This document shows, piece by piece, positions 31,662 through 55,632 of a stretch of 64,000 nucleotides of DNA (positions are counted from its first letter, which is position 1; each line of letters begins with the position of its first letter). The DNA comes from a virus. The notes below the pieces were generated by a model that saw nothing but the letters and a program-made list of their open reading frames with translations, had not been told where the DNA came from and ran no database searches. The position numbers were made by a program, and so were the translations under genes. Location of the stretch: UHGV virus genome UHGV-1358930; one strand, written 5' to 3'.

Positions 31662-31929
31662 ATTCGTTATTTATATCGGAGGAGAATCTACAAATGAGAC
31701 TATACATCAAATCAAGTGAAAACACATCCGAAGAATTTGAAACGTTCAACACATTTGAAGTTAGTAGCATATCCGATGTACTTTCAGCTCATGCCTGATG
31801 AATTTCACTATAAAAGACCTCTTAGACAAGGAGGTCCGATGCTTGTGAAAATAGCTTATAGAACAATTCAATGGTAATCAGTTTTCACGCGTTAACATAA
31901 CATCATTCTAACTAGGAGCTGCTGAATCA

Positions 31930-32709
31930 ATGAAAAAACGAATATATCCAATATCTGCTGGAATTCGTGTTGAGAACAACAAATTTATATTTAAGAATGA
32001 AAATTCACCTGATGATATAATTGATTTCAAATATCCTCAGATATATCAATCGAAATTTGGAAAATACACTTATTGGTTCGGTTACAAGTTCAATGACACA
32101 GTTTCCTCTAAAGACAGATCTAAGTTCTTGCACGCTATCAAAGGATTATCCGAAGATCAGATATCTGATAATGATATTGTTGACTTTATAGACAGGCCAA
32201 TATTTGAGTTAGACAACTATATAAATACGTACAGCATATCTGCAGTTATTTACCCAGTATCTGGAAGAAGCAAGTTAGTTTCTAAAATAATAAGTGAAGT
32301 AGGGAGATTCACTTCACATGATACAAAGAGGCTGTCGTTTGAGTTTGTTAAAAATATTCCAAATAAAATTGAATTTGATTGGGAGCAATTTGAATCCGAT
32401 ACGTCGAATGATCTCAACAAATACAATCAAATGAAGAAATATGTAACAGAGGAATTGTTACCAGCTATTCATTCCTTAGATTACTTTTCTCTTGCAGAAA
32501 ATGTGAAACCTAAATATCGAAAGTATATAAAAAACTATTTGGCATTGTCTGAATCAGATGTAGCTAAACTAGCTTCGTTAAAAGGTGAAACTGTTCTTAT
32601 TATAGACGATATAAATACATCAGGTGCTACACTAGATGAGCTTGTCCGAAACATCAGACTACTAAATAACACGTGCAAGATTTTTATTTATACGCTTATC
32701 GGTAAATAG
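31930..32709 (+). CDS. type I phosphoribosyltransferase-domain protein (C-terminal PRPP-binding motif) with unknown about 150-aa N-terminal domain
   Basis: PRT type I signature VLIIDDINTSGATL near the C-terminus; TAGGAG RBS. Confidence 0.6.
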   Translation: MKKRIYPISAGIRVENNKFIFKNENSPDDIIDFKYPQIYQSKFGKYTYWFGYKFNDTVSSKDRSKFLHAIKGLSEDQISDNDIVDFIDRPIFELDNYINTYSISAVIYPVSGRSKLVSKIISEVGRFTSHDTKRLSFEFVKNIPNKIEFDWEQFESDTSNDLNKYNQMKKYVTEELLPAIHSLDYFSLAENVKPKYRKYIKNYLALSESDVAKLASLKGETVLIIDDINTSGATLDELVRNIRLLNNTCKIFIYTLIGK

Positions 32710-32904
32710 CGAACCAATCGTTAATTTATATAGTAACTTGACGAAGAGTATACTCAATATCGTGCACATGGAGTAAAAAAAATAACATTGACACATGCCG
32801 ATGATCACATAGATAGAATACCGCTTGTGTTTTGTAAGAAACCTTGACACCCACAAGCCCAGCAGAAATGCTGAAATAAACAAAAATAAAAGGAGTTAAT
32901 AATT

Positions 32905-33654
32905 ATGAGTAAATTACGAAAGATCATTGTTTCAGAAATTGAGGACTACAGAGTTCTCTTGCGCAATGCGCCAGCTGTTACAATGATCTTTTTCTGTGTG
33001 TCTGTTATCTTAATGAACCTATTTGCGTCTAAAGAGCTACTAAATATTGAATATTTAGGGCTAGATTGCGGATTTTTGCTATCATGGCTCAGTTTTCTTT
33101 GCATGGATATGCTGACAAAGCGATTTGGTGCAAAACCCGCGATCAAACTTTCATTGTTTGCTGTTTTCCTCAACTTGCTTACATGTATATTCTTCTTTAT
33201 AGTTGCACACATCGGAAACAACTGGGCAGCTTTCTATACATACGAAAATGACATTGCTAACTCCGCTATAAATGAAACAATCGGAGGTACCTGGTATGTG
33301 TTAGTGGGATCAATGACTGCTTTCGTTGTTTCGTCAATTGTAAACGCACTGCTAAATGAAGGAATTGGTAAATTAGTTAAGAGGAAAAATTTTGTCGAAT
33401 ACGCTCTTAGGTCATATGCTTCTACAATGATTGGTCAGTTTGTAGACAATCTTGTTTTTGCAAGCTTAGTATCTAAGATTTTCTTTGGGTGGACATGGAA
33501 GCAGGTAGTATTTTGCTCACTCGCTGGAGCTATCGCAGAACTTCTATCCGAAGTAATTTTCAGCCCGATCGGATTTAAAGTTTGCAAGAAATGGGAGAAG
33601 CACAATGTAGGCGCGGATTATATCAAGTACACGCTTAGCAAAGAAAGGAGATAA
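32905..33654 (+). CDS. yhhQ: YhhQ/DUF165-family membrane protein (queuosine-precursor preQ0/preQ1 transporter family)
   Basis: 6-7 predicted TM helices; CMDMLTKRFGAKPAIKLSLFAVFLNLL resembles the YhhQ core (D..tEvyG motif); AAAGGAG RBS. Confidence 0.6.
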   Translation: MSKLRKIIVSEIEDYRVLLRNAPAVTMIFFCVSVILMNLFASKELLNIEYLGLDCGFLLSWLSFLCMDMLTKRFGAKPAIKLSLFAVFLNLLTCIFFFIVAHIGNNWAAFYTYENDIANSAINETIGGTWYVLVGSMTAFVVSSIVNALLNEGIGKLVKRKNFVEYALRSYASTMIGQFVDNLVFASLVSKIFFGWTWKQVVFCSLAGAIAELLSEVIFSPIGFKVCKKWEKHNVGADYIKYTLSKERR

Positions 33655-33660
33655 TTAAAC

Positions 33661-34341
33661 ATGTCAAATAACAAAGGAGTAGTAGTTGTAACTGGATCTT
33701 CTGGAGGTATTGGAGAGGCCATATGTAAAAAATTTCTATCCGAGGGGTTTGAAGTTCACGGAATTGATGTAGTAACTCCTTCGACAGAACTTCTACATGA
33801 TTTAAACTTCTATTCACACATAAACGATATTAGAAATTCTAATGATCTGCCAGACATTGACAAAGTGGAGTACTTGATCAATTGTGCAGGTACTCAAAAT
33901 TCATACGATGATATCGGAAATAATCTTATCGGTCTAATGAATACTACAGAGAAATATGGACTTCAATATTGGATTAAATCAATTGTAAACATGGCATCTG
34001 TATCCGCGCACAACGGATGTGAATTTCCTAAATACGTCGCGTCTAAAGGTGGTGTGCTCGCTTATACTATATGGACAGCCAAAGAAATTGCTACATACGA
34101 GAATCACCCAACATGTAACAGCCTATCATTTGGCGGAGTACTGACAGCACTTAATTCGGAAGTTATCTGTGACAAAGAAAAGTTCAACAAGATTATGGAC
34201 ATGACTCCGTTAAGGAAGTGGGCTACAGCTGAAGAGTGTGCAGAATGGACATACTTCATCTCAGTTGTAAATAAATCAATGTCAGGACAAGATATCATTA
34301 TCGATAACATGGAAACTAGAAACAATCAGTTTGTTTGGTAA
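33661..34341 (+). CDS. short-chain dehydrogenase/reductase (SDR) family oxidoreductase
   Basis: Rossmann TGSSGGIG at the N-terminus; catalytic YxxxK-like YVASK; AAAGGAG RBS. Confidence 0.6.
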   Translation: MSNNKGVVVVTGSSGGIGEAICKKFLSEGFEVHGIDVVTPSTELLHDLNFYSHINDIRNSNDLPDIDKVEYLINCAGTQNSYDDIGNNLIGLMNTTEKYGLQYWIKSIVNMASVSAHNGCEFPKYVASKGGVLAYTIWTAKEIATYENHPTCNSLSFGGVLTALNSEVICDKEKFNKIMDMTPLRKWATAEECAEWTYFISVVNKSMSGQDIIIDNMETRNNQFVW

Positions 34342-34350
34342 AGTATTCAA

Positions 34351-34406
34351 AGAGAGTTTTGTATTCCTTTGAAACCCTCTCTGAAAATAAAAATAATAAG
34401 GAGAAG
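34351..34406 (+). ncRNA. candidate preQ1-I-type riboswitch-like leader (hairpin + A-rich tail + SD) upstream of queF
   Basis: agagag..ctctct 6-bp stem, then gaaaataaaaataataaggag with the SD in the tail; architecture only, no model scan possible. Confidence 0.3.
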
Positions 34407-34413
34407 TAAAAAA

Positions 34414-35925
34414 ATGCTAAAATCAAACAATGGAAGAACATCCGAAGACTTATCAGGAGTAACTCTACTTGGTAATAACAACACTGAGTACAACTACGAC
34501 TATACTCCAGAAGTTCTAGAAACATTTGTAAACAAGCATCCTGACAACGATTATGTTGTCACATTTGATGCTTATGAATTTACAAGCAAGTGTGTCACCG
34601 GAGACACTATGATAGATGTTGCATGTAATGAAACTGACAATCCGGATGGAATTCCAATCAAAGATTTGGTAGGTACAGAAGGATATGTGTTTTGTGTAGA
34701 TCCCACTACATTACAACCATTATGTAGGAAGTATCGAGATGTACGAAAGACTGGAGAAAGTGTACCTGTAGTTAAAGTACTCATGCAAAGTTTGAGAACA
34801 GATGGAAAGGGTAACACATACTATGAATCTTCTGAAATCAAGTGTACACCTGATCATATGATATTGGTGAAAAAAGGATTCCATGATAGCGAATGGGTGT
34901 GTGCAAAAGATCTCAAACCTGGCATGAGGTTGATTGCAAATCAAAGAAGTGGAGATGTAATACGATCTAAACTTCGACACAGACTTATTGGGGAAGCAAT
35001 TTTTGATGAAGATATTATGAATATTCATCATATAGACGGTAATCATTACAATAATGACCCATCTAATCTATCTAATTTATCTTCTCATGATCATCACCAT
35101 CTTCATAGATCTCAAGAATATGGATACGATAATTTAGATGTATCATACTTAGTTGATCTGTATAACTCCGGAGAAAACTTCAACTCCATAGCAAAGATGT
35201 TCAACTGTGATGTATCTACCATTGAATCTAGAATAGGTAATATAGTTGGAAGACGGACACAATCAGAGTCATTATCACTACGAAATAACTTGTTGAATAA
35301 AGAGCGGGATAGCGAAATCTGTGAATTGTACAACAAAGGATACTTGCTATCTGAAATTGCAGATTACTTAAATATCCACAGTACAACAGTGTTAGGAGCA
35401 CTAGAAAGACACGGCATCCCTCGCAGAGAATCGAACTTCTCTAGGTACAATCGAAAGAAATTGAACCTCCCACCATTGAATCATAAAGTACTAGCTGTAC
35501 TAGATGGTGGATATGAAGATGTGTACAACATGGAAGTAGAAGGAGTTGAAAACTATTTTGCCAATGAAGTGATAGTCCATAACTGCCCAAAAACGGGGCA
35601 GCCAGATTTTGCAAAAGTTGTAATTAGTTACATTCCTAATGAGAGAATGGTTGAAAGCAAGTCCCTAAAGCTTTACCTCTTTTCTTTCCGCAATCATGGA
35701 GATTTCCACGAAGACTGCATGAACATCATCATGAAGGATCTAATTCATCTTATGGATCCGAAGTACATTGAAGTAAAAGGTATTTTTTCTCCAAGAGGAG
35801 GTATCTCCATCTTTCCCTTTGTTAACTACGCGAATCCGAAATTTAATTATCAGGATTTTGCAAAGTCTCGAATGCTGGAGGCGCTTAGAGATTCGAGCAA
35901 TAGAACAGTAAGATACGATATGTGA
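34414..35925 (+). CDS. queF: NADPH-dependent 7-cyano-7-deazaguanine reductase QueF (YkvM type), interrupted by an intein (extein 172 aa)
   Basis: N-extein ends ..AYEFTSK, C-extein starts [18 protein letters not shown]..; spliced junction [14 protein letters not shown] matches the QueF catalytic motif E(F/Y)TSLCPxTGQPD. Confidence 0.8.
34591..35583 (+). mobile_element. intein (331 aa) within queF carrying an HNH endonuclease domain and two HTH modules; inserted immediately before the QueF catalytic Cys, which serves as +1 residue
   Basis: Block [11 protein letters not shown] at the start; terminal VIVHN followed by extein Cys; HNH core [23 protein letters not shown]. Confidence 0.75.
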
Positions 35926-36023
35926 AACAACGGGAAGATATAAATATAGTAAAGTCTGTAGATACGTACAGCAAAAAAAAGCAGCAAACTCTAGAATAGA
36001 TTACAATTACTTAGAAAGGTTAG

Positions 36024-36767
36024 ATGAAAATGGAAAACAAAAGAAATTCAAACAAAAAAGCGTTGGTGCTCTCGTCAGGTGGAGTAGACTCCACTACTTG
36101 CGTAGGTATTGCTGTAAATGAATTAGGTTCTGAAAATGTTAGCACTGTATCGGTGTTTTATGGACAGAAACACAATAAAGAACTTGAATGCGCTGAAAAA
36201 GTAGCTGAATTTTATAATGTAAAGCACTATGTTCTTGACTTGTCTAATGTCCTTCAGTACAGCAACTGTTCTCTAATGAAGAACAGCACAGAAGAAATCC
36301 CTATGATGAGCTACGCAGAGCAGATTGAAAAGAATGGTAAACCATCAACAGAAGTTCCATTGAGAAATGGACTCATGCTCATGGCAGTTGGCTCATTAGC
36401 TATGCAACTTTATCCAGAAGCTGATGTCGATATTTACATTGGAGCACATGCCGATGATGCTGCAGGTAATGCTTATCCAGATTGCTCTGCAGAATTCATT
36501 CAAAACGTAAAAGAAGCAATATTGATTGGATCTAGATATAAAGTTAACTTAGTTTCTCCATTTGTGAATCATAACAAATCAGAAGTTGTTAAATTAGGGT
36601 TATCTATAGGTGCTCCGTATGAATTAACAACTTCCTGTTACAATGGCAGAGAGAAAGCTTGTGGATTGTGTGGAACCTGCAGAGATCGTATAGCTGCATT
36701 CAAAGCAAACAATGCAATTGACCCAATTGAATATGAAATTGACGACCCATTCAAAGAAATGCGATGA
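36024..36767 (+). CDS. queC: 7-cyano-7-deazaguanine synthase QueC
   Basis: PP-loop [14 protein letters not shown]; C-terminal zinc Cys cluster [10 protein letters not shown]. Confidence 0.9.
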
Positions 36768-36774
36768 TGTTCAA

Positions 36775-37371
36775 ATGGAAATATGGCGACCTGCTAAAGG
36801 ATATGAAGATAAATATGAGGTGAGCAATTTAGGACGAGTAAGAAATTCAAAGCATTATATCATGAAACCACATCTACAAGATGATGGATATCTTTGGATA
36901 TACCTTGCGTCTAAAACTAGTCCTAACAACACATCAATTCATAGGCTAGTTGCTAAAACGTTTATTCCGAATCCAGAAGGCAAACCGCAAGTAAATCACA
37001 TAGACGGGAACAAAACAAATAATCGAGTTGAGAATCTAGAATGGGTTACAGGATCTGAAAATGTTAAACATGCTTATGCCAATAATCTAATTGCAGACAA
37101 ATCTCCTGAAGGCATCAGAAATATTGTAGCAGCAGCTAGAAAATCATTGAAGAAATATTGCAACATCCCGATAATATGTGAAACTACAGGGCAAGAGTTT
37201 GAATCTATTCATCATGCTGCACTACATTATGATGTAGACGATACCACTATTCAAAACATCGTAAGAAATGTAACAAAAAGATCCAGAAAACTACCTGGAT
37301 TGAAATTTAGATTCAAATATCCAGAGATTACTTGTAGATCACCTCATAGAAAGAAACATTTAATTAAATAG
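36775..37371 (+). CDS. HNH homing endonuclease inserted between queC and queD
   Basis: [23 protein letters not shown]; [25 protein letters not shown]; C-terminal IENR/NUMOD-like module. The ORF listed from 36712 overlaps queC; the likely start is ATG 36775. Confidence 0.75.
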
Positions 37372-37387
37372 CTTTGGAGGAATGAGA

Positions 37388-37825
37388 ATGTATACAGTAA
37401 AAACAAAAGTATCTTTTGAAGCTGCGCATCGTCTATACAATGTAGACACATACTCAAAAGAATGCAGAGATAATCTCCATGGGCACTCATACAAAGTAGA
37501 AATTGTCGTAGGCGCAGATAACTTGAACTCTGCTGGAATGGTTATTGATTTCAAGCTGCTAAAAACAGTTATTCGAGAAGAGATTGAATCTAAATATGAT
37601 CATTCTTGTATATTGAGAAAATGCGATCCAATTGCAAATACTATCAAGGAAAACTGTAAGAAAGTTATCCTTGTTGACGAAAGTCCTACTGCAGAATGGA
37701 TGGCAAAAGAATTCTATGACATGATTGAATCTAAAGTTCATACGTATTCTTCTGATTTACATGTTGTTTCAATTGGAGTACAAGAAACAGAAAATAACAT
37801 TGCGTATTATCTTCCGGAGGAATAA
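37388..37825 (+). CDS. queD: 6-carboxy-5,6,7,8-tetrahydropterin synthase QueD
   Basis: CRDNLHGHSYKVEIVV zinc/catalytic motif; GGAGG RBS. Confidence 0.9.
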   Translation: MYTVKTKVSFEAAHRLYNVDTYSKECRDNLHGHSYKVEIVVGADNLNSAGMVIDFKLLKTVIREEIESKYDHSCILRKCDPIANTIKENCKKVILVDESPTAEWMAKEFYDMIESKVHTYSSDLHVVSIGVQETENNIAYYLPEE

Positions 37826-37827
37826 AC

Positions 37828-38469
37828 ATGAAAGTTATCGAATTATTTAATAGTATTGATGGAGAGGGCAAACGAGCTGGTATGCTCGCTACGTTTATAC
37901 GTCTGTCTACGTGCAATCTTAGATGCAGTTACTGCGATTCCGCTTACGCTTTCGATGATAAGCTTGCTGAAGAGATGTCAATTCAAAGTATTGTAGCAAA
38001 CTGCGACAAATATGATTGTCCGCAAATTACGCTAACTGGTGGAGAGCCTTTGATTTCCAGAGACGTAGAGCTACTTTTATCCGAACTTGATTCTCATGGA
38101 TATGACGTCAATGTGGAAACAAATGGGTCTATTGATCCATCCGCATATCATAAATACAAAAATGTTTGGTTCACAATTGACTGGAAATGCCCTTCTAGCG
38201 GTATGGAGTCAAAAATGAATCCGAAAGCATTTGAAACACTTCGTGAGCAGGATGTACTAAAATTCGTAGTAGGGTCAAATGAGGACTTACAAGATGCGTT
38301 ACACGTCATCAAGAAGTACAACCCAAAATGCTCAATCTATTTCAGTCCGGTATTTGGATATGATGCAAAAAATATCGTAGAATTCATGAAAGATCACAAA
38401 CTGAATGATTGCAAAGTTCAGCTTCAAATTCATAAGTATATCTATGACCCGAATGCTAGAGGAGTATGA
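37828..38469 (+). CDS. queE: 7-carboxy-7-deazaguanine synthase QueE (radical SAM)
   Basis: [10 protein letters not shown] radical-SAM cluster motif; GGAGG RBS. Confidence 0.9.
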
Positions 38470-38486
38470 TCAAAGAAGGTGTTGAT

Positions 38487-39062
38487 ATGAAAAATATTGA
38501 TAAAAACAAAATTGAAAAGCTGACAAGAGAGCTCTTAGTAGCTTTAGGCGATGATCCTGACAGAGAAGGGTTGAAGAAGACTCCAAGTCGAGTTGCAAGA
38601 ATGTGTGATGAATTATTTGAAGGTATGACACATTCGAATCACGAGATAGCTGAAATGTTCAATACATGTTTTGAAGATGTAAAAACTGGAGATCTTGTAG
38701 TGGAGAGCAATATTCCGATTCACTCCTGCTGCGAACATCATCTCATGCTGATGTATGATATGTCAGTAGCTATTGGATACATTCCAAATGGTAAAGTTAT
38801 CGGATTATCTAAGCTTGCTAGAATTTCTGACATGGTTGGAAAGCGACTTCAGTTGCAAGAACGAATCGGTTCAGATATCGCAGATATTCTCCACGAAATT
38901 CTCAATACCAATGACATCATTGTTGTCATTCAAGGAAAGCACGGATGCATGACAGCACGCGGCATTAAATCAAGAGAAGCAATAACTCGAACAGCTACAC
39001 TTAGAGGAAGATTTGAGTCAGATTCAGATCTACGATCCGAATTCTATTCTCTCATCAAATAA
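38487..39062 (+). CDS. folE: GTP cyclohydrolase I FolE
   Basis: CEHHLM active-site motif; N-terminus aligns with B. subtilis MtrA-type FolE ([17 protein letters not shown]). Confidence 0.9.
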
Positions 39063-39101
39063 CTTACTTCTGGATACAGATAAGTAGATTGAATCGTTAA
39101 T

Positions 39102-39137
39102 GTAGACGTACTAAACTATAGTGCGTCTACAATTTTA
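39102..39137 (+). terminator. possible terminator hairpin
   Basis: gtagacg..cgtctac stem followed by AATTTTATAT. Confidence 0.35.
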
Positions 39138-39188
39138 TATACTTAGTTAAATTTTACGAAAATAATCTAAAGAAATGAGGTCAAATAA

Positions 39189-39800
39189 TTGAAAAAGCTG
39201 ATTAGATCTTCAACAACTGCTGTATATTCAACGCAGATCGCACCAAAAATATTAGAAATTTGGATTGTAGATGATGTTCGGCACTGCAGCGCATCCATAG
39301 CAGCTGCAGACGAAACTGCCGAAACTCGTGAAGGGCTAGAAACAGAGAAAACATCACAAAATAAAAATTCTAGAATAAGACGAATTGAGCCAAGTGCTGA
39401 TATCGAAGAATTTCTAAATAGTATGAAGAAAGCTCCTATTCTATTTATAGAAAGATCTGCAAAAAATTCGGCATTTTTGAAGTTATATAAAACATTATCT
39501 GGAAAATTGTTTGATGTGGCTGTAGCAAAAGAACTTCTGAATCAGCTTACAGTTTCTGATTATGTATATACTACGGAAAGTGATTCAGCTAATTACAAAG
39601 GAGATGAGTTAATTGTATTTGAACCTGTGCATGATCTAGTATCTAGAAAAAATGGAGTTGTATTGAAAAATGTCGTAATCTATATGAAAATAGATAAAAC
39701 AGAGTCAAACGAAGATGAGACAGTTTTAGTATCATTTCATTCCGCTGAATTTGAAGATGACAAACCGTATAGTTCTGCGAACAACAAGGAGGATAGATGA
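39189..39800 (+). CDS. hypothetical protein (TTG start)
   Basis: GAGG RBS; 203 aa. Confidence 0.4.
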   Translation: MKKLIRSSTTAVYSTQIAPKILEIWIVDDVRHCSASIAAADETAETREGLETEKTSQNKNSRIRRIEPSADIEEFLNSMKKAPILFIERSAKNSAFLKLYKTLSGKLFDVAVAKELLNQLTVSDYVYTTESDSANYKGDELIVFEPVHDLVSRKNGVVLKNVVIYMKIDKTESNEDETVLVSFHSAEFEDDKPYSSANNKEDR

Positions 39801-40276
39801 GGTACATGAAAATTTTTGCATTTGCGGATAAGAAAGATAGCATCAAAGACAAATTGAAAGAGAAATCAGATGATTTAGTATATCACCTCGTGAAAGTATT
39901 TTTGTTCCCTAACTGCGAAGTGAAACCTCACTGGTGTCAAGAAATCTACGGATTTATTCACAGCGTACCTAAAACTAAAAACAAGAATAAGTTCCCAGAC
40001 AAGACTTTCATCTTCAATAACACTTACGAAATCTGGGGAGATACAATTGAATCCTGTATCATAACTGCTATAAAGGATTATCCTAGTATAGTGCCATTAT
40101 TTGATCAGCACACCGGGTTAGCTATCTGCGAAACTGCAGTTAGAGAGTATTTTGAATGGTTATCTGAGGAGCTATCTAGTATCGGAAGAGTCGCATCTTC
40201 AGATGTATACAAGAAGATTGATGAGCTAATCGAAGAAGTAGTTCAAAAATTGAATAACACAACATATGCACTATAA
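39797..40276 (+). CDS. hypothetical protein
   Basis: AAGGAGG RBS; 159 aa. Confidence 0.45.
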   Translation: MRYMKIFAFADKKDSIKDKLKEKSDDLVYHLVKVFLFPNCEVKPHWCQEIYGFIHSVPKTKNKNKFPDKTFIFNNTYEIWGDTIESCIITAIKDYPSIVPLFDQHTGLAICETAVREYFEWLSEELSSIGRVASSDVYKKIDELIEEVVQKLNNTTYAL

Positions 40277-40332
40277 GGAAAAGAAATCTGAACTGAATCA
40301 TCAAAACGATAGGAATAAAGGAGAATTTGCTT

Positions 40333-40803
40333 ATGTATGTTAGGAAAATTATGACAGACACAACAAAGCATGCAATGGAGACATTGATGCGAAACATTGG
40401 AGGACCGTTTGGAGCTGCAATTGTTAAAAACGGAGAAGTAATCTGTGTAGAATCAAATTCGGTGTTAAGGGATAAAGACCCAACAGCACATGCGGAAATG
40501 AATGCTATTCGATCTGCATGCAGAAAGTTGAAGACTTACGATCTAAGTGACTGCGAATTGTATGCAACTGGCAGCCCTTGTCCTATGTGCTTAAGTGCAA
40601 TAATCTGGGCAAATATCAAGACAGTATACTATTCTGGTACGTACGAAGATTGCAAGAAGATTGGATTTAGAGATGACTTCATTTTCAATTTCATCAAGAA
40701 TGATTGCAAGAACGATGATATTGTTAAACTAGAATTGCATGACAATGATCTGGCAAATACATTGTACAACGCATATGAAACATTCTCAGGAGAATTATAC
40801 TAA
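40333..40803 (+). CDS. CDA-fold nucleobase deaminase, closest to guanine deaminase GuaD/TadA family
   Basis: IGGPFGAAIV..DPTAHAEMNAIR..SPCPMCLSAIIWA: zinc-ligand HAE and PCxxC motifs with spacing typical of Bacillus GuaD-type guanine deaminases. Confidence 0.65.
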   Translation: MYVRKIMTDTTKHAMETLMRNIGGPFGAAIVKNGEVICVESNSVLRDKDPTAHAEMNAIRSACRKLKTYDLSDCELYATGSPCPMCLSAIIWANIKTVYYSGTYEDCKKIGFRDDFIFNFIKNDCKNDDIVKLELHDNDLANTLYNAYETFSGELY

Positions 40804-42169: not shown

Positions 42170-42823
42170 ATGGATGTAGTAAAGAATATGCGTGGAAGTA
42201 TTTGGTGGTTGAAAGACGAATTTGATAAATACAAAGGTGAAAGAGGCATCCTTAGAGGTTCTAGGCCGGTTATCATTATGAATAATCCAGCAAACGAATA
42301 TAATGATTGCACTATTACATATTTGCCGATTTCTAAGTGCGAATCTCATGCTGGTGATGATAGTCGAATTCAAATGTTTTATCAGGTACCTATTCAGATT
42401 CCTGGTAATAAATCTAGTTATGTATGTTGTAATAGCATCATGACTACAACTACTTCTCATCTTGGAGAATATGTTGGGCAGATTTCAGAAGATAAGCTAA
42501 AAGAAGTCGAAGCCGAATTGATGCGTTATCTTTCTCTTTCTGAAAAAGTCGTTACACGAGAAGTAATAAAAGAGGTTAGGGATACAGACAAGGCAACGAA
42601 AACAACTTCTTTTTCTATTACAGACGCTGTCGCTTGTCCAGAACTCAAAAAAGTATATTCTAGTTGTACTGAAATGGCTAAAGATCTTAACTGCTCTCCT
42701 GCGTCTATCAGCAAGTCGAGTAGATGGGGAAGTAAGCTGATGCACAAATACACAGTGTTTAAAGTAGCAACGGCTGCTGGAAACTATGTTTGCAAAACTA
42801 AGGAGGAAATCAAAAATGAGTGA
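42170..42823 (+). CDS. protein with N-terminal PemK/MazF-like (toxin endoribonuclease fold) domain fused to a C-terminal putative DNA-binding module
   Basis: GSIWWLKDEF..KGERGILRGSRPVIIMNN...CTITYLPISK resembles the MazF/PemK core (G.E..G.RP..v.s ... v.PiTs). Confidence 0.45.
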   Translation: MDVVKNMRGSIWWLKDEFDKYKGERGILRGSRPVIIMNNPANEYNDCTITYLPISKCESHAGDDSRIQMFYQVPIQIPGNKSSYVCCNSIMTTTTSHLGEYVGQISEDKLKEVEAELMRYLSLSEKVVTREVIKEVRDTDKATKTTSFSITDAVACPELKKVYSSCTEMAKDLNCSPASISKSSRWGSKLMHKYTVFKVATAAGNYVCKTKEEIKNE

Positions 42824-43834: not shown

Positions 43835-44601
43835 AAGGAGAAAGTTTCTCTAACATTCATTGACGTATGTAATCTATTGTAAAGCATTGTTTCTGCAGTT
43901 TTTAGTTTACTTTTTACTGTTTTGCTATCTAATCCATACATATCACATATTTTAAATATATCAGAATCTGTAAGTTTGTGCTCTCTATCTATCATCTCTC
44001 TCATCAGAAGTTCTTCAATAGTATCATAATTATCAGAAGATAGGGAGGTTAATTCAATCGACGGGATGTCCTCAGAAGTCAAGAAGGGTTCATGCTTATC
44101 AAGATCAGCTATGTATAAGGTTCCAAATATGGCTTTTAATGAATCCATCTTATCTACAGGTAAATGTAACCTTGGATCGGATAGATCTTCGTATTTAACT
44201 TGACCCCAATGTTTACCTAACTGTTCTCCGACTTCCATACATAAAGATCTACGAATGGAGTATTTAACTTCGTTCAACTCTCTTTCAATCATCTCTCCTA
44301 TACGAAGTAAATAAAATACTGAAAACGATAGATCTTGTCTATATCCTTTATGTGTTTCATCACCCTGCCATTTGTACCACCAAAAACATTCACAAAAATG
44401 AGTCAGAGCTGATTGAAGTTTATCTTCATATGTAACAGTAGAATTGTTGATAAATGTTCTACTTGCTACATATCCAAAAAACGCATAGTTAAGCTCTATT
44501 ATCTCATCGCGTTGTTTGAAACATTTCATTCGCTCTGCTTTATTTTGTGGCATAGTCGAATATATGTCTAAGGTTCGTTGTTTTATTTCCTCATTAGTCA
44601 T
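43828..44601 (-). CDS. sigma-70-family phage sigma factor-like protein
   Basis: Region-2-like IELNYAFFGYVASRTF and C-terminal HTH-like region; sole sizeable minus-strand gene, facing a large regulatory region. Confidence 0.55.
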   Translation of the reverse strand: MTNEEIKQRTLDIYSTMPQNKAERMKCFKQRDEIIELNYAFFGYVASRTFINNSTVTYEDKLQSALTHFCECFWWYKWQGDETHKGYRQDLSFSVFYLLRIGEMIERELNEVKYSIRRSLCMEVGEQLGKHWGQVKYEDLSDPRLHLPVDKMDSLKAIFGTLYIADLDKHEPFLTSEDIPSIELTSLSSDNYDTIEELLMREMIDREHKLTDSDIFKICDMYGLDSKTVKSKLKTAETMLYNRLHTSMNVRETFSLK

Positions 44602-45810
44602 TTTCTAGCACTCCCGTATCAATTGATGAAATTCTGAAATATTGAAATATTTAATAAACTGAGTAATGTGTAGAATATTGTGAAAACTGAAAATATGAAC
44701 CTTTGTTAATCTTACATGTAGAGGTATGTTTAAATCTACAAATATATTATATGAACTTAGTTAGCAGAAGTCAATGTAAATTAGCCAATTCATATCAAAA
44801 TTTTTATTGAAATCAGCAGATTTTCAGAATTTTGAAGTTTTACACAATTTGATCTAACTATAAAGCTAGATAGGAAATAACTATAACAAGCTGTTTGGCA
44901 TATAGATATGTTATAGCGAGACTTGAATAGCACTATAAGATAAATAACACGAACTTATCGCAATATCCGAAATTTAGAAATATTGAAGATTTGTGTATGG
45001 ATCATCTTAAACATTGAAATCTACAAAATCTACAATATCTGAAATTTTGAGATATTGTAAATTTGAATACTTTAACATACGTATATTGAATGTGCTTAAA
45101 AGATTAAATTTTCGTAAATTATTTTATTTATAGTTAAAATTTATGATTTGTTAATAGTTATAAACAGTATAAAAGTGATCTATTATTATAAGTGTCACCG
45201 TCTAGGTATATATGTATTCAATATATCATATAGTAGATATGTAAGTATTATATATCAAGCACATATCAAAATACTATAGCAAACTAAGTTATATAGGTAA
45301 TCCCTATATCAAGGTGTAATCTATATACAGTAATCCCTCACAGCGTAAGTTGAGCATAAACAATGAAATTGAGACATGTAGATATATTATCGCTATATAT
45401 CTAAACAAATTGATATAGTATTGACATATAGAGAATCACGTGATATTATAGCAAAACTTCATGGTTATGAAACTTCTATGTAACAAAATCAGTCAGAAAC
45501 CACCAAAATTTGAATATTTCAGAATATTGAAATTTCAATAATATGTAAATTTTACAATCTTTCAGAATCGTGAATATTTCAAAATATGAAAATTTCAACT
45601 TTCCGCTAAAATCACCAGAATTTAGTAAAATTGAAAGAATATGAAAATTTGATGCCTTCAATCTTTCAGAATCTGGTCATTTGGCCGCTTTAATATTATT
45701 AAAGAAATTAAAGTAATTAAAGTTATAATGTTATTAAAGTTATTTTAAAGGAATTAGCCAATTAAAGTAAAAAAGAATTAAAGTAAAAACTCGCAAGCTC
45801 GTTTTTACTT
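44602..45810. repeat. AT-rich repeat-rich intergenic region (iteron-like TTTCAGAAT / GAAATATTGAAAT units; ATTAAAGT x6 at 45690-45780; internal TTGACA-17-TATTAT promoter around 45420-45450)
   Basis: Multiple imperfect direct and inverted repeats, no credible ORFs. Confidence 0.6.
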
Positions 45811-46119
45811 TTTGGTTTGTAATCTGAGAACATAAATTCTGTCAGTAGATACCTCTATGCTGAAACGCATTGACGTACTTTTATGCGATCATGCGAAACA
45901 CATAGACGTGGGCGTGACCTAAACACTACAGTTGATACTGCACATGGTCGGTTCAAACTACGTAGTAGTTGAATTTTTGAGTAATTTGGTGGCGCTTGCG
46001 TTGAATATCTGTCTTCGTCTCGTGTATGCAACGCACGTATGAGTCTCATATGCAAAAAAAATATTCGCCAGCGCATTGGCAAATATCTGTTAGATTTCAA
46101 AAATTTATAAAATTCGGGG

Positions 46120-46148
46120 TTGACTTTTTGAAGCAGATACCTTATACT
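46120..46148 (+). promoter_or_regulatory. sigma-A consensus promoter (TTGACT-17-TATACT) driving an about 460-nt untranslated leader/ncRNA before the ORF at 46616
   Basis: Exact -35 hexamer, 17-nt spacer, near-consensus -10. Confidence 0.6.
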
Positions 46149-46615
46149 ATGGGTGTAGGTTCACCTAACAAGTTAAAACTCAGTTGAGCGTAGCACCTCG
46201 ACTACTTACTACTTCTGCTAGGCAGCTTCATGATAGAGTCAGCGCAAGATCGTCGAAGCAGGTAACTTGTTAGAAACCGAATCGTTAATGTACTTAGCAA
46301 ACCGCCACCAGGTAACTCCTATCGAGCTTGAAATTGAATAATCTCAAGATTGGTCAACAAAATCTTCTTTCAGAAGAGGCGCCAGTTTTGTACTCATCTT
46401 CTACTCACTTTTCGATAGGGGTGCTGGTAGTTGCTAAGCTATCAGTTTAGGTTTGCTAAAGTAGAAATAATCATCTACGTGAATTAGCCGGTATCTAGAG
46501 GTCGCTACTCGACGGTACGACGTTGTAGCATGCGTAGAAGCTGCAGCTGATGTGATGAGTGCAAAACTGACGCCTTTCTTTTGTTTATTTAGTAGTTCGG
46601 AGGGCTAAAGCATAC

Positions 46616-47983
46616 ATGGATATCTACACCGCAATGAATTCTATAAATAAGCTTGAAAATTTCATTATCAACGAATTTGATTTTGCAAAAGGAATGTATA
46701 GATCTACAATGACTAAGCTCAAAGAGATTGATAAGAAATGTAACGCAATTTCGACTAAATTGAATTCTTCTTTATCTGATGCAGGTGTAGAAGACAAAGT
46801 TAGTAAAGCTATCGAATTGACAAATCAGCTGAATATTTTGCTATCTGAGTTATCTGCGTCAGAAATTGAAAGTTCTAGAGAATTGAAAGAATCTTTCAAG
46901 TCTTGCGCAGCTATTTTTGTTATAGACGAAGATAAACCTCCAGCGACTGATAAGAGACTAGAAAATAAGCTAGATGCAATTTTAGATATATTGAAGAATT
47001 CTTCAATTTCTGATAAATTTACTAGTATTGAATCTAATCAATTTAATAAGCCTCTTGAAATTACAGAAAATGAGGATTCTAATGCGGTTGTGAGCAGATC
47101 CAGCGTTGCTGCAGATCAAATGAACGCATCTGAGACAGATTGCACTACTGTTGTTGATGTTAATCCTGTTTCATCATCTAACAATGAAGAACACACAAGT
47201 GCTTCTAATTCACTATCTTCAGATGTCAACCGGCGTCAGATATTCAAACGATTTGTCTCTACAATGGAGTATGCAAAGACTCATTCTACAAATTATCCAT
47301 TGGCTGACGTTGCAAAAGACTTGATTGTGGAGTGGTTTCAAGCTAGATTTTGTGATCCGACAACGCATTTCAAGTATAGACATCGAACTATTATAACTGG
47401 TATGTTGTCAATTACACTAGAAGTCGCTAGGAAGTATGCGTCATATTGTAAAGAGTCTTGGAGGCAGATATTAGATGTTTGGCCAAAGGTTAAGACGTCT
47501 GATATCTTAAGTGTCTCTTCTTTGATATCTGATATTCGTTCAAATAACATGCAATTTGCTTTGAGTTACGAGCTACAGTCTGCTATGTCAGATCCTGATG
47601 TTTTTGTTGAACGGTATGGTGAATATAAATTTACAGCAGTATGCGCTGAATATGTTTGGTACATACTTACTACTACAGTTTTTAAGAAAATCTGTGCAGA
47701 CGATGCATCTAACCATTTCGGAGTATCTGCAAGCTACTACATTACAAAACACAGTTTATGGGACTTGCTACTTAGCCATGAGGATAGCATCTATTTAGGT
47801 AATAAGGATATGTGTGATGTAGATGGTTACATATTTTCACCTGAAGGCATAGAATTCTGCGAAGACATGGAACTTAATCCGCATAAAATGGTTACTCATA
47901 TTGAAACGTATGACGCAGTCGATAAACATGATAAACATGTTGCAGCTAAGCAGGCGGAGAAGTTAGAGGAGGGCTTGATTTGA
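46616..47983 (+). CDS. hypothetical protein
   Basis: GGAGGG RBS; 455 aa; Ser-rich central region. Confidence 0.55.
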   Translation: MDIYTAMNSINKLENFIINEFDFAKGMYRSTMTKLKEIDKKCNAISTKLNSSLSDAGVEDKVSKAIELTNQLNILLSELSASEIESSRELKESFKSCAAIFVIDEDKPPATDKRLENKLDAILDILKNSSISDKFTSIESNQFNKPLEITENEDSNAVVSRSSVAADQMNASETDCTTVVDVNPVSSSNNEEHTSASNSLSSDVNRRQIFKRFVSTMEYAKTHSTNYPLADVAKDLIVEWFQARFCDPTTHFKYRHRTIITGMLSITLEVARKYASYCKESWRQILDVWPKVKTSDILSVSSLISDIRSNNMQFALSYELQSAMSDPDVFVERYGEYKFTAVCAEYVWYILTTTVFKKICADDASNHFGVSASYYITKHSLWDLLLSHEDSIYLGNKDMCDVDGYIFSPEGIEFCEDMELNPHKMVTHIETYDAVDKHDKHVAAKQAEKLEEGLI

Positions 47984-49302: not shown

Positions 49303-49879
49303 TTGTATATATACACCATATTGTACATACAAACAATGCGACTTAGCTTGTCCTAATAGAGCTGAAGTGAATTGTTGGTTCAAACGATGCCGACTTGATA
49401 TGTCAAATAATTGCTTGCATACTAATATCCGAAATATTGAGAAAGCCGAGGATCTACTAAGTAACAAGTATGGAGAAACTGTGTGGTTTCCCACAGATAA
49501 TCCTTCAGATGCAAGCGACACTATTTGCTACGTAGCTATTTGCAAATATGGTAAAGGTACTGCTCTTGGAAACGGAATATACAATCTGGATTTTGCAAAA
49601 TTTATAGATATGATCAAGGAGTCCTGGAATACGCATTTTGAAACAGATAACTTAATTCAGATGCGTGTGTGGTCTTTGTCTGCAAATTACCTAGTTATCT
49701 CAAATCTAGATTATGTTAGATTTCAAGATTTTGAAAGTCAAACGTTGCTAAGGCTTCTGAATGATCGAAGAGATTATACAAAGACAACTGTAGTAGTTAC
49801 TAGTAAAGAACCTTTGGTCGGCAGCGGAAATTTCTTTCCTAGATTGACTTCTTTGCTAAAGGGGGTCAAGAGCAATTGA
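49295..49879 (+). CDS. hypothetical protein, Cys-rich N-terminus (possible helicase-associated factor)
   Basis: 194 aa immediately upstream of the helicase gene; function not inferable from sequence alone. Confidence 0.45.
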   Translation: MHDCIYTPYCTYKQCDLACPNRAEVNCWFKRCRLDMSNNCLHTNIRNIEKAEDLLSNKYGETVWFPTDNPSDASDTICYVAICKYGKGTALGNGIYNLDFAKFIDMIKESWNTHFETDNLIQMRVWSLSANYLVISNLDYVRFQDFESQTLLRLLNDRRDYTKTTVVVTSKEPLVGSGNFFPRLTSLLKGVKSN

Positions 49880-52299
49880 CGAATTCAGTAGAACTTCAAG
49901 TTATTTGTAAAATTTTAACAAGTCAAGATGATTCTGAAATTGATAGGCTGTGTGCGTTTGATGAATCCTATTACGCAGTATTCAAAGATCAGATCAAATT
50001 TATTCTAGATCATAGAGAAAAATATCATACTGTCCCAGACTTGTTTACGTTCCAAGCTCAATTCGAAGACATTGTTTTGATTGATGTAAACGAATCTGCA
50101 GATTTTTTAGTAGACGGACTTCGGAAAAACAAGCAGCAGATCATACTCTTACAAACATTCAATAAGCTATCTGAGTTAGGTTCTGCAGACGTTTCTGAAG
50201 CTTGGCAGTTCTTACAATCCCAATGCGACAAAGCTGCTCAACTTGATAATTCTAACCCGATGGATATCATCAAAGAAGCTCACAAGCGAAGTGATCAAGT
50301 TTTATCGCTAAGTAATCAAACAAGAATTCCTACAGGATTCAAAGAAGTAGATGAAACAATGTATGGAGGATTGTCAACTGTTGAAGAACTTTGTCTTGTA
50401 GTTGCTAGAACTAACACAGGTAAAGCTCAGCCTCTTTGGAGTAATATCTTAACACCTACTGGGTGGAAGCGTATGCGAGATATTCAAGTAGGAGACATTG
50501 TATGCGGTAGAGATAATGACAATGGTAAAGTAGTTCAAATATTTCCGCAAGGTACAATTGACTACTATCGTGTAAAGTTTGATGATGGTACTTATACGGA
50601 GTGTTCTGCAGATCATCTTTGGGAAGTTCTGGATAGTGAACGAAGGAAGCATGATAGAAAAACTTATGGTCAGTATCTTACATTGACTACTCGAGATATT
50701 CGGAATCATATGTATCGCAGATACTCTGTTGATATGTGTGAACAAATTGAATTCGAGAGTGCTTTTGATACAGATAGTGAACTTGACGGATATTTTTTAG
50801 GAGCATTTATCGGGCATGGTAGAAATGTAGGTAACAAGCTATATATTCATTCTCTGTCCGATGTTTCAAAGCGACGTATAATTGATGCATTGTCTAAATA
50901 TCGTTGTCAATTCACAGAAAATGATCCAAATACACTCGTGATTGAGGATAAGAATGATGGTAAGCTTATCCAAAAGATGTTCGAGTACAACTTGATGAAC
51001 TGCAAAGTCATTGATAGACATATTCCGGATATATATTTTCATAGCCCTGTAAATGTTAGAAAAGCTCTGTTATCAGGTCTCTGCGATACAGATAGCACAA
51101 TGTTATCAAAAAATCATAGAGGTTGGGTTTTCGTTACATCTTCAGATCAGCTTAAATCTGATTTTGTTTACATTGCTAGATCTTTAGGTGTAAAAGCAAA
51201 GGTGTCGACTGCAAGATCTGGTAGATGGGTTGACTTAGGTGTATCGCACGTTGCGAATACGTACCACAGGGTTATGTGTATCTCAAAATTCAATCCGTTT
51301 TATGGTTCACCAAATTACACAGAATTTGAACGCAGACAGGATAAAACTAAATTTAAAAATCGCAAGCGTGTTTGCAAATTCATTGATTCTATTGAATACG
51401 TAGGTAAGACGGAATGCCAGTGTATCATGGTAGACAATAAGACGCATACATATATTACAGATGATTTTATTGTCACACATAACACCTGGGTTACTACTAA
51501 GATGATGGAGTCTGCACAAGCGAATGGATTTCCTGTACTATATTATAGCCCAGAGATGCAATCTGCTTTCATTGGCACACGATTTGATACCTGGAGAGGT
51601 CACTTCCGAAATAGCGATATTCAACGAGGTAAATACAGCGAAGACTACATTCAGTACATCAAAGACATTGTTAAAGAGGAAACTGGTGCATTTGTTGCAG
51701 AAGACAAAGATATGCCAGGAGGAAAAACAACTGTCAGGTCGATTGAAACTCTAGTCAAGCGACATCATATAAAGCTTGTTATCATTGATGGTCTGTCTTA
51801 TATGGCAGATACAGAAAAGTCTGATAGCGATGTTATTAAGTATAAAAATATATGTACTGGACTATTCCGAATGTCTAAAACATATGGATGTGCTGTAGTA
51901 GTATCTGTACAAGCTAATAGAGACACTAAATCTAATGTCGATGACAAAGGAGTCCCGTGGCCTGATATGTATTCGATTGAAGGCTCAGACCATCCAGGAC
52001 GTATTGCAACTCAAGTATTTGCGCTTCGACAATTGTACGAAGAGCATACATTAGAGATAAAGCTGTTGAAGACTAGAAATGCAAAGAATGCAAATCCTAC
52101 GTTCGCATATGTATGGGATCCAAATACAGGAAACACAGAGTTTGTTTCGGATGATGCATCGGCTGCTCCTCCTTCTGCTCCTGCACAGCCTAGCAAGTTC
52201 TCAACGCCGACAGTGTCAGCAAAGATTGTACACACCGATATAGATGATAATCTAATCGATGCCAGTACAGATGACGATCTAGATGACGTTGAGTTTTGA
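49876..52299 (+). CDS. DnaB-like replicative helicase (T4 gp41-like), interrupted by an intein in the P-loop
   Basis: Exteins join as ..LVVARTNTGK|TWVTTKMMESAQANG (Walker A GxxxxGKT). C-terminal RecA-like motifs: Walker B LVIIDGLSYM, SVQANRD. Confidence 0.8.
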   Translation: MTNSVELQVICKILTSQDDSEIDRLCAFDESYYAVFKDQIKFILDHREKYHTVPDLFTFQAQFEDIVLIDVNESADFLVDGLRKNKQQIILLQTFNKLSELGSADVSEAWQFLQSQCDKAAQLDNSNPMDIIKEAHKRSDQVLSLSNQTRIPTGFKEVDETMYGGLSTVEELCLVVARTNTGKAQPLWSNILTPTGWKRMRDIQVGDIVCGRDNDNGKVVQIFPQGTIDYYRVKFDDGTYTECSADHLWEVLDSERRKHDRKTYGQYLTLTTRDIRNHMYRRYSVDMCEQIEFESAFDTDSELDGYFLGAFIGHGRNVGNKLYIHSLSDVSKRRIIDALSKYRCQFTENDPNTLVIEDKNDGKLIQKMFEYNLMNCKVIDRHIPDIYFHSPVNVRKALLSGLCDTDSTMLSKNHRGWVFVTSSDQLKSDFVYIARSLGVKAKVSTARSGRWVDLGVSHVANTYHRVMCISKFNPFYGSPNYTEFERRQDKTKFKNRKRVCKFIDSIEYVGKTECQCIMVDNKTHTYITDDFIVTHNTWVTTKMMESAQANGFPVLYYSPEMQSAFIGTRFDTWRGHFRNSDIQRGKYSEDYIQYIKDIVKEETGAFVAEDKDMPGGKTTVRSIETLVKRHHIKLVIIDGLSYMADTEKSDSDVIKYKNICTGLFRMSKTYGCAVVVSVQANRDTKSNVDDKGVPWPDMYSIEGSDHPGRIATQVFALRQLYEEHTLEIKLLKTRNAKNANPTFAYVWDPNTGNTEFVSDDASAAPPSAPAQPSKFSTPTVSAKIVHTDIDDNLIDASTDDDLDDVEF
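50425..51483 (+). mobile_element. intein (353 aa) with LAGLIDADG homing endonuclease; class-3-like (Ala1, WCT motif)
   Basis: Starts AQPLWSNILTPTGW; ends FIVTHN|T. Block B ..ADHLW, block F ECQCIMV, block G Thr-His-Asn. LAGLIDADG motifs LDGYFLGAFIGHG and LLSGLCDTDS. Confidence 0.65.
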
Positions 52300-52514: not shown

Positions 52515-53651
52515 TTAGGAGAAAGCTATTCTCAAGCCCTCGTTCAATATATTCTTTGATGCATTGATATCTCTATCATGTGTTGTTTGACAATTAGGAC
52601 AAGTCCAATTTCTAACTTCAAGATTTTTGACTTCTGGATTTTTGAATCCGCAACAGCTACAAGTTTGAGAAGACGGAAAGAAGGCGTCTATTTTGACAAG
52701 TTGTTTTCCATACCAGCTGCACTTGTAAGTCAATAGTTCAACGAATTTTGACCAGCTTGCGTCTGAAATTGCTCTTGCTAGTTTATGATTCTTGACCATA
52801 TTTTTGACTTTCAAGTCTTCAACACAGATTATGTCGTGGTTTTTGACAAATTCTGTTGACAGCTTGTGCAAGAAATCATTTCGTTGATTTGAAACTTTCT
52901 CAAATTGTTTAGCAAGTCTGATTCTTGATTTGTTTCTGTTATTAGATCCTTTTTGCTTCTTCGAGAGCTGTCTTTGAAGTCTTCTTAACTTCTTAGTAGA
53001 CTTTGAAAGGTATTTCGGATTTTTGATCTTTTCACCGTCTGAAGTTATTGCGAAATCTTTGATGCCGAGGTCAATTCCTACAACAGATCCAGTTTTGTCA
53101 AACTCTTCAATTTCAACATCTTTGCAACAGATACTTGCAAAATATTTTCCTGAAGCTGTTTTTGAGATGGTTGCCGAAAGCGGAGTTCCTTTGACATTTA
53201 AATTTCCTTTGAATTTAACCCATTTCAATTTAGGCAAGAAGATCTTGTTATCTAAACAATGAAATTGTGCAGGTGTGGAGTATGTAGCCTTATATGACTG
53301 TCTACTTGAAAGTTTCTTCTTAAATTTAGGATAACCTGGTTGCTTTCCATTCTTTACGTTTCTAAAGAAGTTTTGATACGCAGTATCAAGATCTCTAAGA
53401 GACGATTGCAAAGCCATTGCTTCAGGTTCTTTCAACCATGAATATTCGTCAAGCTTCTTGAGCTTTGTTAAATCTGCAGAATTTTGATTATATGTATTTG
53501 ACTTTCTTGCCTCTTCATAATCTTTGATGGATTTAGCAAGATAGTAGTTGTAGACAAATCTGCAGCAGCCAAAGGTTTTTGCAATTTGCTCAATCTGCTG
53601 CTTGTTCGGATATATCCGTATTTTATAAGCTTTCAGAATCATTTTGGTCAT
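52515..53651 (-). CDS. tnpB: TnpB (IS607/IS605-family OrfB, RuvC-like nuclease with C-terminal zinc finger)
   Basis: N-terminus [23 protein letters not shown]; zinc finger [24 protein letters not shown]. Confidence 0.85.
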
Positions 53652-54243: not shown

Positions 54244-54295
54244 CTCAAAATAATTTAAGGTTAAAAAATAATATCATCTTAATATAAAAAAGGAA

Positions 54296-55303: not shown

Positions 55304-55344
55304 TAGATCGTTAAAATTAAATGTACTAAATACTTAGGAGTGAT

Positions 55345-55632
55345 ATGTTGATTACACTGAATATTAGAAATTGTAAGATTTTAGACACTGCGACTTTATC
55401 TAAATTGACAGCATATATTGATAAGTTGCAAAATAAACTTGAAGCTGCTGAGATGGTTGAATCGCAGCAGAATATGTTGATCGACGCGTTGATCGAAGAA
55501 AATCAAAGACTTCATACTTTAGTAGATACTGGGCGGGATACCAATGAAACTAAACAAACAGCAAGAAAAGCTAATAGATCTATCGTTTCTGTCCGATATA
55601 AAACAAGCTCAAGTTATGCAGACATGCGATAA
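55345..55632 (+). CDS. hypothetical coiled-coil protein
   Basis: TAGGAGTGA RBS; 95 aa. Confidence 0.4.
   Translation: MLITLNIRNCKILDTATLSKLTAYIDKLQNKLEAAEMVESQQNMLIDALIEENQRLHTLVDTGRDTNETKQTARKANRSIVSVRYKTSSSYADMR

Follow-up and report, generated by a model that had tools for sequence, protein, structure and literature searches.

A preQ1 synthesis cassette in a ~160 kb phage and the DpdA-family transglycosylase gene encoded elsewhere in the same phage species

The closest described counterpart of the locus examined here is the deazaguanine cluster of Streptococcus phage Dp-1, which groups gp1 (QueF), QueC, QueD, QueE, FolE, the importer QueT and gp7 (DpdA), and in which dPreQ1, the DNA form of 7-aminomethyl-7-deazaguanine (preQ1), amounts to ~1.7% of G (PMC6884629). 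In Vibrio phage VH7D, QueF is combined with a DpdA2 and preQ1 is inserted into DNA (PMC10516641), and on the current view a DpdA is found in all viruses that encode deazaguanine genes (Cui 2023). Here, we analyzed a stretch of 64,000 nt from the virus genome UHGV-1358930 (hereafter the window), which corresponds to ~40% of a genome of ~160 kb, since contigs of its relatives measure 159-167 kb. A run of genes on the same strand at 31.9-40.8 kb contains a complete set of preQ1 synthesis genes, and a sequence-only reading of this cassette had proposed a novel modification route that would work without DpdA. Our results show that this phage species does encode a DpdA-family protein, on a contig that also carries the cassette, and that the locus is better compared with Dp-1 than with a route of a new kind.

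All five pathway genes named in the sequence-only reading were confirmed, with scores on curated models that pass or fall just under the cut-offs and with intact catalytic motifs. QueF reaches 149.3 bits with TIGR03139 (QueF-II, cut-off 86.9), matches Dp-1 gp1 (phmmer E 9e-72) and contains the NADPH motif as ESKSLKLY, conforming to E(S/L)K(S/A)hK(L/Y)(Y/F/W), as well as the catalytic cysteine in CPKTGQPDF, conforming to CPxTGQPD. QueC, with its PP-loop and Zn cysteine cluster, scores 179 bits with Pfam QueC and 157.4 with TIGR00364 (cut-off 150.3). QueD scores 95.3 bits with Pfam PTPS and has the C..HGH motif, its score with the equivalog TIGR03367 being slightly under the cut-off (84.3 vs 89.25). 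QueE scores 260.8 bits with TIGR03963 (cut-off 260.1) and carries the radical-SAM CX3CX2C cluster as CNLRCSYC, and FolE scores 210 bits with Pfam and 229.5 with NF006826 (cut-off 162). By curated models and motifs, FolE, QueD, QueE and QueC make up the full preQ0 gene set. The closest relatives of QueF and QueC are those of Dp-1 and MS1. The phage species of the window shares with Dp-1 the same five enzymes, a precursor importer, a DpdA of the same family and QueC proteins that are 42-50% identical. Unlike Dp-1, it has a YhhQ/QPTR importer instead of QueT, a DpdA gene that lies 35 kb away in the replication module instead of adjacent to the cluster, a genome of ~160 kb instead of 56 kb, and three additions: a short-chain dehydrogenase/reductase (SDR), a GuaD-like deaminase and an intein in QueF.

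The absence of DpdA from the window itself, as the sequence-only reading had stated, holds. A family hidden Markov model (HMM) built from 80 phage DpdAs and run with --max on the six-frame translation of the window gave a best E of only 0.34, and phmmer found no match in the window when Dp-1 gp7 or phiST DpdA3 served as query. Pfam and PHROGs scans of the unannotated window open reading frames (ORFs) of at least 200 aa detected no tRNA-guanine transglycosylase (TGT) either, a result that has no weight for DpdA because the Pfam TGT model PF01702 also fails on Dp-1 gp7, on phiST DpdA3 and on the 321-aa DpdA of the phage species described below. The model misses both of the phage DpdA subfamily representatives scanned (Dp-1 gp7 and phiST DpdA3).

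The gene was located through relatives. A scan of IMG/VR with the YhhQ protein of the window returned 20 loci, and in L046, a 62 kb Dp-1-like phage, a DpdA of the Dp-1 gp7 type lies directly upstream of a YhhQ-SDR pair. Scanning IMG/VR with this L046 DpdA led to three sister phages of ~160 kb (L038-L040) that carry the same YhhQ-SDR-queFCDE-folE cassette and have DpdA ~31 kb from it, at a syntenic place. The genes upstream of DpdA in these three phages (C-terminal part of PolA, clamp loaders and RecA) are syntenic with L011, a contig that is 100.00% identical to the window over 53253-64000, continues for a further 9.96 kb and breaks off exactly where this synteny reaches its last gene, at the clamp-loader and HNH genes. 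On contig IMGVR_UViG_3300029032_000001, a 321-aa protein that matches the family HMM with an E of 2.9e-108 begins 137 bp past the point where L011 stops. Three further assemblies (97.3-97.5% identical to L011) have the same gene at the same place, with neighboring genes of the same lengths as those of L011, and in all four loci L126, L127, L128 and L129 (97.3-97.7% identical to L011) the gene directly follows the clamp-loader and HNH genes. The contig IMGVR_UViG_3300029032_000001 encodes YhhQ and SDR proteins 100% identical to those of the window, with a DNA identity of 97.0% to the window and 97.7% to L011, and it carries YhhQ (L028) and DpdA (L126) 38 kb apart. Projected onto the window, DpdA occupies ~74.1-75.1 kb, which is ~10 kb past the right edge and ~35 kb downstream of folE, in the replication module.

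In tblastn searches the 321-aa protein matches experimentally validated DpdA, namely that of Enterobacteria phage 9g (1e-12), as well as phiSM DpdA1 (1e-18) and Bacillus phage Flasso (8e-50), and its HMM family includes Dp-1 gp7. Since it matches 9g DpdA directly, it probably belongs on the DpdA1 side rather than with DpdA2. A profile search of the family against PDB sequences gave no TGT match, the relationship being visible only by fold comparison, which shows a TGT-type TIM barrel. D57-S58, within FIDSGAYS, and D216-S217 are invariant in 18 as well as in 36 family sequences. FIDSGAYS resembles the DSGGFQ motif of TGT, and the two invariant Asp residues may correspond to the catalytic Asp residues of TGT. 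Compared with the Salmonella DpdA, a DNA preQ0 insertase (PDB 7UI4), the protein is only 13% identical and shorter (321 aa vs 413 aa), and no dpdB-K restriction cluster accompanies it here. VH7D offers a parallel, since there too a phage QueF with the NADPH motif is paired with a DpdA, and the same argument, that preQ1 is the base inserted by a phage with its own QueF, can be applied here, even though the VH7D enzyme is a DpdA2 and the one described here is probably on the DpdA1 side. The gene right after DpdA (L126:12422-12982, equivalent to ~75.1-75.6 kb of the window) encodes a MazZ-like dATP/dGTP diphosphohydrolase (PF18909, 40.9 bits), and the same pairing occurs in five other large-phage loci. 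A nucleotide pyrophosphohydrolase beside a DNA transglycosylase is likewise a feature of the DpdA3/DpdL/MazG-like cluster of Cellulophaga phage phiST (PMC10516641).

The phage species therefore encodes a DpdA-family transglycosylase, and the gene identities, the presence of DpdA and its fold are all observed within that one species. The sequence-only reading had itself named a dpdA elsewhere in the genome as evidence that would count against a DpdA-less route, and at species level such a gene exists, which refutes the DpdA-less reading. A DpdA-independent route would, if true, contradict the view of Cui 2023; with DpdA just outside the window there is no contradiction. This case may serve as a warning that a gene missing from 64 kb of a 160 kb genome says little about the genome as a whole.

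We consider it likely, with a probability of roughly 0.8 for the explanation as a whole, that the cassette supplies the precursor for a 7-deazaguanine DNA-modification system whose other half is DpdA, most likely a system of the dPreQ1 type, in a phage of ~160 kb infecting gut Firmicutes. FolE, QueD, QueE and QueC would convert GTP to preQ0, which QueF would reduce to preQ1 after splicing of its intein, and the YhhQ/QPTR importer would top up the pool with imported precursor. The DpdA-family DNA-guanine transglycosylase would then replace guanines of the phage DNA by the deazaguanine base, the most likely product being dPreQ1, as in Dp-1, and the modification would protect the phage against host restriction. 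Which base is inserted, how extensive the modification is, and what the SDR and the GuaD-like protein do are inferred. If correct, this extends DpdA-type modification to a large and abundant clade of ~160 kb human-gut phages.

Several points weigh against this explanation. As judged from the genes, either preQ0 or preQ1, or else a derivative, could be the inserted base. That the window's own strain has DpdA is deduced from four strains that are ~97.5% identical, and the gene lies 35 kb from the cassette instead of adjoining it. QueF depends on protein splicing at its catalytic cysteine, and the splicing is assumed. The roles assigned to the SDR and the GuaD-like enzyme come from gene clustering, and no preQ1 riboswitch was found in nine bacterial loci with paired YhhQ and SDR genes, which are presented further below.

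The intein had gone unremarked in the sequence-only reading. It is inserted directly before the catalytic cysteine of QueF (..YEFTSK|C...VHN|CPKTGQPDF), which makes this cysteine the +1 residue of the intein, and active QueF therefore requires splicing. An exact intein-less QueF allele is found in sister strains that are otherwise near-identical, so presence or absence of the intein is polymorphic among present-day strains. The locus provides a clear case, found in nature, of an intein positioned at the QueF catalytic cysteine. The cassette has a second mobile insert, the free-standing homing endonuclease gene after queC, which lies outside the pathway and is missing from three related loci. 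The coordinates of these features are collected in Table 1.

Table 1. Features of the cassette and its surroundings, in window coordinates.
Feature	Position	Strand	Basis
PRT-like (ComF-like) protein, 259 aa	31930..32709	+	PRPP loop, PRT core fold
YhhQ/QPTR-family queuosine-precursor importer	32905..33654	+	Pfam Vut_1
Classical SDR oxidoreductase	33661..34341	+	Pfam adh_short, adh_short_C2
QueF, unimodular preQ0 reductase, intein-interrupted	34414..35925	+	TIGR03139 QueF-II
Intein in QueF, 331 aa, HNH/HTH	34591..35583	+	Pfam Intein_splicing 44.5 bits, HNH_3, HTH_38
QueC, preQ0 synthase	36024..36767	+	Pfam QueC, TIGR00364
Free-standing NUMOD4-HNH homing endonuclease, mobile insert outside pathway	36775..37371	+	Pfam NUMOD4, HNH_3
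QueD, 6-carboxytetrahydropterin synthase	37382..37825	+	Pfam PTPS
QueE, CDG synthase, Clostridial type	37828..38469	+	TIGR03963
FolE, GTP cyclohydrolase I	38466..39062	+	Pfam, NF006826
Two ORFs, 203 aa and 159 aa, between folE and deaminase	39189..40276	+	no Pfam/NCBIfam match
GuaD-like (CDA-fold) guanine deaminase, 156 aa	40333..40803	+	PDB matches
CDA, cytidine deaminase; CDG, 7-carboxy-7-deazaguanine; HTH, helix-turn-helix; PRPP, phosphoribosyl pyrophosphate; PRT, phosphoribosyltransferase.

The importer and the SDR that were said to flank the cassette are both well founded. YhhQ reaches 81.3 bits with Pfam Vut_1 (COG1738; cut-off 27.2), the family of the E. coli YhhQ/QPTR preQ0/preQ1 transporter, from which it differs in being paired with an SDR and in falling under the NCBIfam equivalog cut-off (TIGR00697, 43.3 vs 50.95). 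The SDR has the motifs TGxxxGIG, NxAG and S..YxxxK, and its beta-2 strand ends in an Asp, a residue that suggests NAD(H) as cofactor. Its nearest solved relatives are generic FabG-like enzymes and hydroxy-acid or diol dehydrogenases; an assignment as a pterin-type reductase was rejected because none of these nearest relatives is a pterin reductase. YhhQ homologues had already been noted in phages (Hutinet 2019), and among 78 IMG/VR DpdA loci YhhQ adjoins DpdA and/or que genes in 28. The SDR adjoins YhhQ in 19 of the 20 IMG/VR loci found with the YhhQ protein, and the pair also occurs where queFCDE and folE are missing (four loci, L046 among them, and one metagenome contig). Within the 78 DpdA loci, an SDR lies no more than 10 kb from DpdA in 10, several times contiguous with it.

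The same pairing is found in bacteria. A scan of one genome per species recovered 549 relatives of the SDR with ~50-56% identity, from Clostridia, Spirochaetes, Erysipelotrichaceae, Endozoicomonas and others. When the neighborhoods of the best 80 loci were inspected, a YhhQ-family gene was directly beside the SDR in 63, covering several phyla, with no other neighbor conserved, and in these 63 no DpdA and no que gene was seen within 8 kb; two further bacterial loci do have such a gene, and these probably come from phage contigs binned wrongly. This clustering suggests that the SDR is functionally tied to the importer and would act on the imported compound, and a pairing that persists in bacterial loci with no DpdA nearby points to precursor salvage rather than to tailoring of DNA. 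No preQ1 riboswitch was detected in the window.

At the other end of the cassette, the deaminase that the sequence-only reading had placed 1.3 kb downstream of it is indeed most similar to guanine deaminases. Its best PDB matches are B. subtilis guanine deaminase (1WKQ/1TIY, E 1.3e-32) and plant guanosine deaminase (7DBF, 5e-28), TadA and dCMP deaminases matching far more weakly, and its Zn motifs (HAE and PCPMC) are conserved, as are GF.DD and the C-terminal Tyr. The Zn ligands, GF.DD and C-terminal Tyr are shared with B. subtilis GuaD (1WKQ), from which the protein is set apart by being phage-encoded and clustered with YhhQ-SDR and DpdA. Its gene is contiguous with YhhQ-SDR in two loci that have no que genes, and in a third locus (L096) the order YhhQ-SDR-GuaD-DpdA is contiguous. 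Such an enzyme plausibly would clear the guanine released by base exchange.

These accessory genes raise the question of whether the base is altered beyond preQ1. The SDR and/or the deaminase could modify it before or after insertion by DpdA, for example to an oxidised or deaminated 7-deazapurine. Both genes recur inside DpdA modules, in the arrangements DpdA-YhhQ-SDR and YhhQ-SDR-GuaD-DpdA besides YhhQ-SDR-GuaD, and extra enzymes such as DpdL, DpdM and DpdN do yield new derivatives (Cui 2023). Neither the YhhQ-SDR pairing nor a guanine deaminase is mentioned in Hutinet 2019, in Cui 2023 or in the transporter survey PMC11130926; the claim that the gene set goes beyond described dPreQ0/dPreQ1/dG+ systems thus stands in so far as the SDR and GuaD are unaccounted for in the two phage deazaguanine papers (Hutinet 2019, Cui 2023), and falls in that DpdA is present. 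However, the SDR follows the importer and not DpdA, as the 63 bacterial loci indicate, the GuaD-like protein retains the residues of a guanine deaminase, and it is missing from many cassettes, so that we consider a tailored base unlikely. Also unlikely is a wider reading in which the SDR that accompanies YhhQ, in phages and in hundreds of bacteria from the gut and other hosts, is a salvage enzyme for 7-deazaguanine precursors that has not been described so far, perhaps freeing preQ1 from imported queuine by an NAD-dependent oxidation, and in which SDR and GuaD together change or drive the product of DpdA, so that the DNA might carry a base different from plain dPreQ1. The tight YhhQ-SDR pair in phages and bacteria and the recurrent GuaD are, in any case, candidate new players in 7-deazaguanine salvage or DNA modification.

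The PRT-like gene at the left end of the cassette had suggested a more radical scheme, in which its product would ribosylate preQ0 or preQ1 with PRPP and the deazapurine would enter DNA as a deoxynucleoside triphosphate through the phage polymerase, independently of DpdA. The protein does have the type I PRT fold with an intact PRPP-loop motif, VLIIDDINTSGAT, its gene adjoins YhhQ in the window strain and in two other loci, and the MazZ-like dGTP diphosphohydrolase beside DpdA could be read as a part of such nucleotide metabolism. Deazapurine PRTases are known from toyocamycin and tubercidin biosynthesis. The distribution of the gene tells otherwise. Among strains with an identical YhhQ protein, some have the PRT gene at this place, while others have an IS607-type element (serine recombinase and TnpB) with a 163-aa ORF, as seen when the PRT site (31664-32779) is compared with L028:7282-9876 of a ~97% identical sister. 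In nine sister IMG/VR contigs the entire cassette directly follows the upstream gene and the PRT gene is missing there, and a PRT motif scan of IMG/VR returned nine contigs, none of them bearing YhhQ. In 13 of 15 related loci, including phage PAU, the gene stands alone, with no que gene within 10 kb.

The protein itself argues in the same direction. In structure it comes closest to ComF, which serves in DNA uptake and is not known to act as a PRT, and curated PRT models remain under threshold (Pfam 25 vs 26.3, NCBIfam OPRT-like 20.6 vs 115, comF 19.1 vs 233.6). A profile of the family searched against the PDB matched the PRPP loop alone, with an E of ~0.01 or weaker. The nearest known counterparts are Helicobacter pylori ComF (PDB 7P0H) and type I purine PRTases, and the protein has a single Cys and hence no Cys-rich N-terminal Zn finger. 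The sequence-only reading was right about the PRPP loop and the PRT fold, while the position flanking the cassette applies only to some strains. Because the gene varies in presence among strains and occurs at loci free of que genes, we regard the nucleotide-level route as extremely improbable; the PRT-like gene is probably an unrelated, strain-variable neighbor outside the system. The exact protein was also recovered on metagenome contigs of 108 and 162 kb.

Of the two ORFs that follow folE, the 159-aa one (39797-40276) is kept beside GuaD in most relatives. Its homologue in Sphingomonas phage PAU, gp116, lies two genes from the PRT homologue gp114 (cf. L003:16324-16842), which suggests that PRT and the 159-aa ORF are old neighbors and that the que cassette entered between them. 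The two ORFs were also considered as a split DpdA and rejected, as they have no similarity to it.

A role in tRNA was the remaining option, namely that preQ1 is made and imported mainly to raise queuosine in host or phage tRNA through the host TGT, with no role in DNA. A tRNA role was suggested by Hutinet 2019 for phages that have the preQ0 pathway and lack DpdA, the window does carry a tRNA island, and a host TGT could take up phage-made preQ1 as a side effect. With DpdA encoded in the species, this purpose becomes superfluous. The island, which had been described as adjacent, is in fact 24 kb from the cassette, and none of its nine tRNAs has a GUN anticodon; the tRNA at 4950-5026, a clean cloverleaf scoring 62.7 bits with Rfam, is a Tyr tRNA with the unusual anticodon ATA (A34). 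Neither a bacterial-type TGT nor QueA or QueG was seen in the window ORFs scanned, and in other phages YhhQ and SDR stand directly beside DpdA. Specific support for queuosine manipulation is thus missing, and we judge it very unlikely, DpdA-dependent modification of DNA being the better account of the cassette. Two other elements lie inside the island, an Rfam abiF RNA match at 3359-3395 (38.3 vs a threshold of 37 bits) and a TnpB gene at 5772-7028, the latter forming with a minus-strand element at 52515-54243 the IS607-type-like elements of the window.

Megablast of the que cluster against GenBank phages gave no match, and no close relative is found there. To the left, the exact protein encoded at 896-1408 was absent from the records searched. 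The content of the window is that of a phage, with the tRNA island, ThyX, a NAD-dependent ligase, tail fibres carrying Flg_new repeats, a DnaB-like helicase that contains a homing-endonuclease insert, a primase, a single-stranded DNA-binding protein (SSB) and a split PolA. The helicase (49876-52299) has an internal Hom_end domain that is probably another intein, and the PolA gene, from 59208 to the window end at 64000 and past it, is split by endonuclease genes of the HNH and GIY-YIG types.

Beside SSB in the replication module, 57845-58285 encodes another T-fold protein of the QueD/PTPS-like kind, a degenerate one (25.4 bits with Pfam PTPS), which has lost two of the three Zn-binding His and has no HGH or HRH motif and no DpdL motif (LxxxHRHxF). 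Together with a 396-aa ORF (55845-57035) it was considered as a phiST-like DpdA3/DpdL pair and rejected, since tblastn against phages and phmmer with phiST DpdA3 and DpdL gave nothing and the T-fold protein lacks HGH and HRH; in this respect the window differs from phiST, as phmmer detects no DpdA3 or DpdL homologue in it. Downstream of the cassette, 42170-42823 encodes a fusion of a PemK/MazF-like toxin domain with the DNA-binding motif NUMOD1, conserved beside a DUF932-like gene in all relatives. Between divergent genes at 44601-46616 lies a stretch of 2 kb with no long ORF and a GC content of 0.29, compared with ~0.37 elsewhere, which may be a regulatory or origin region.

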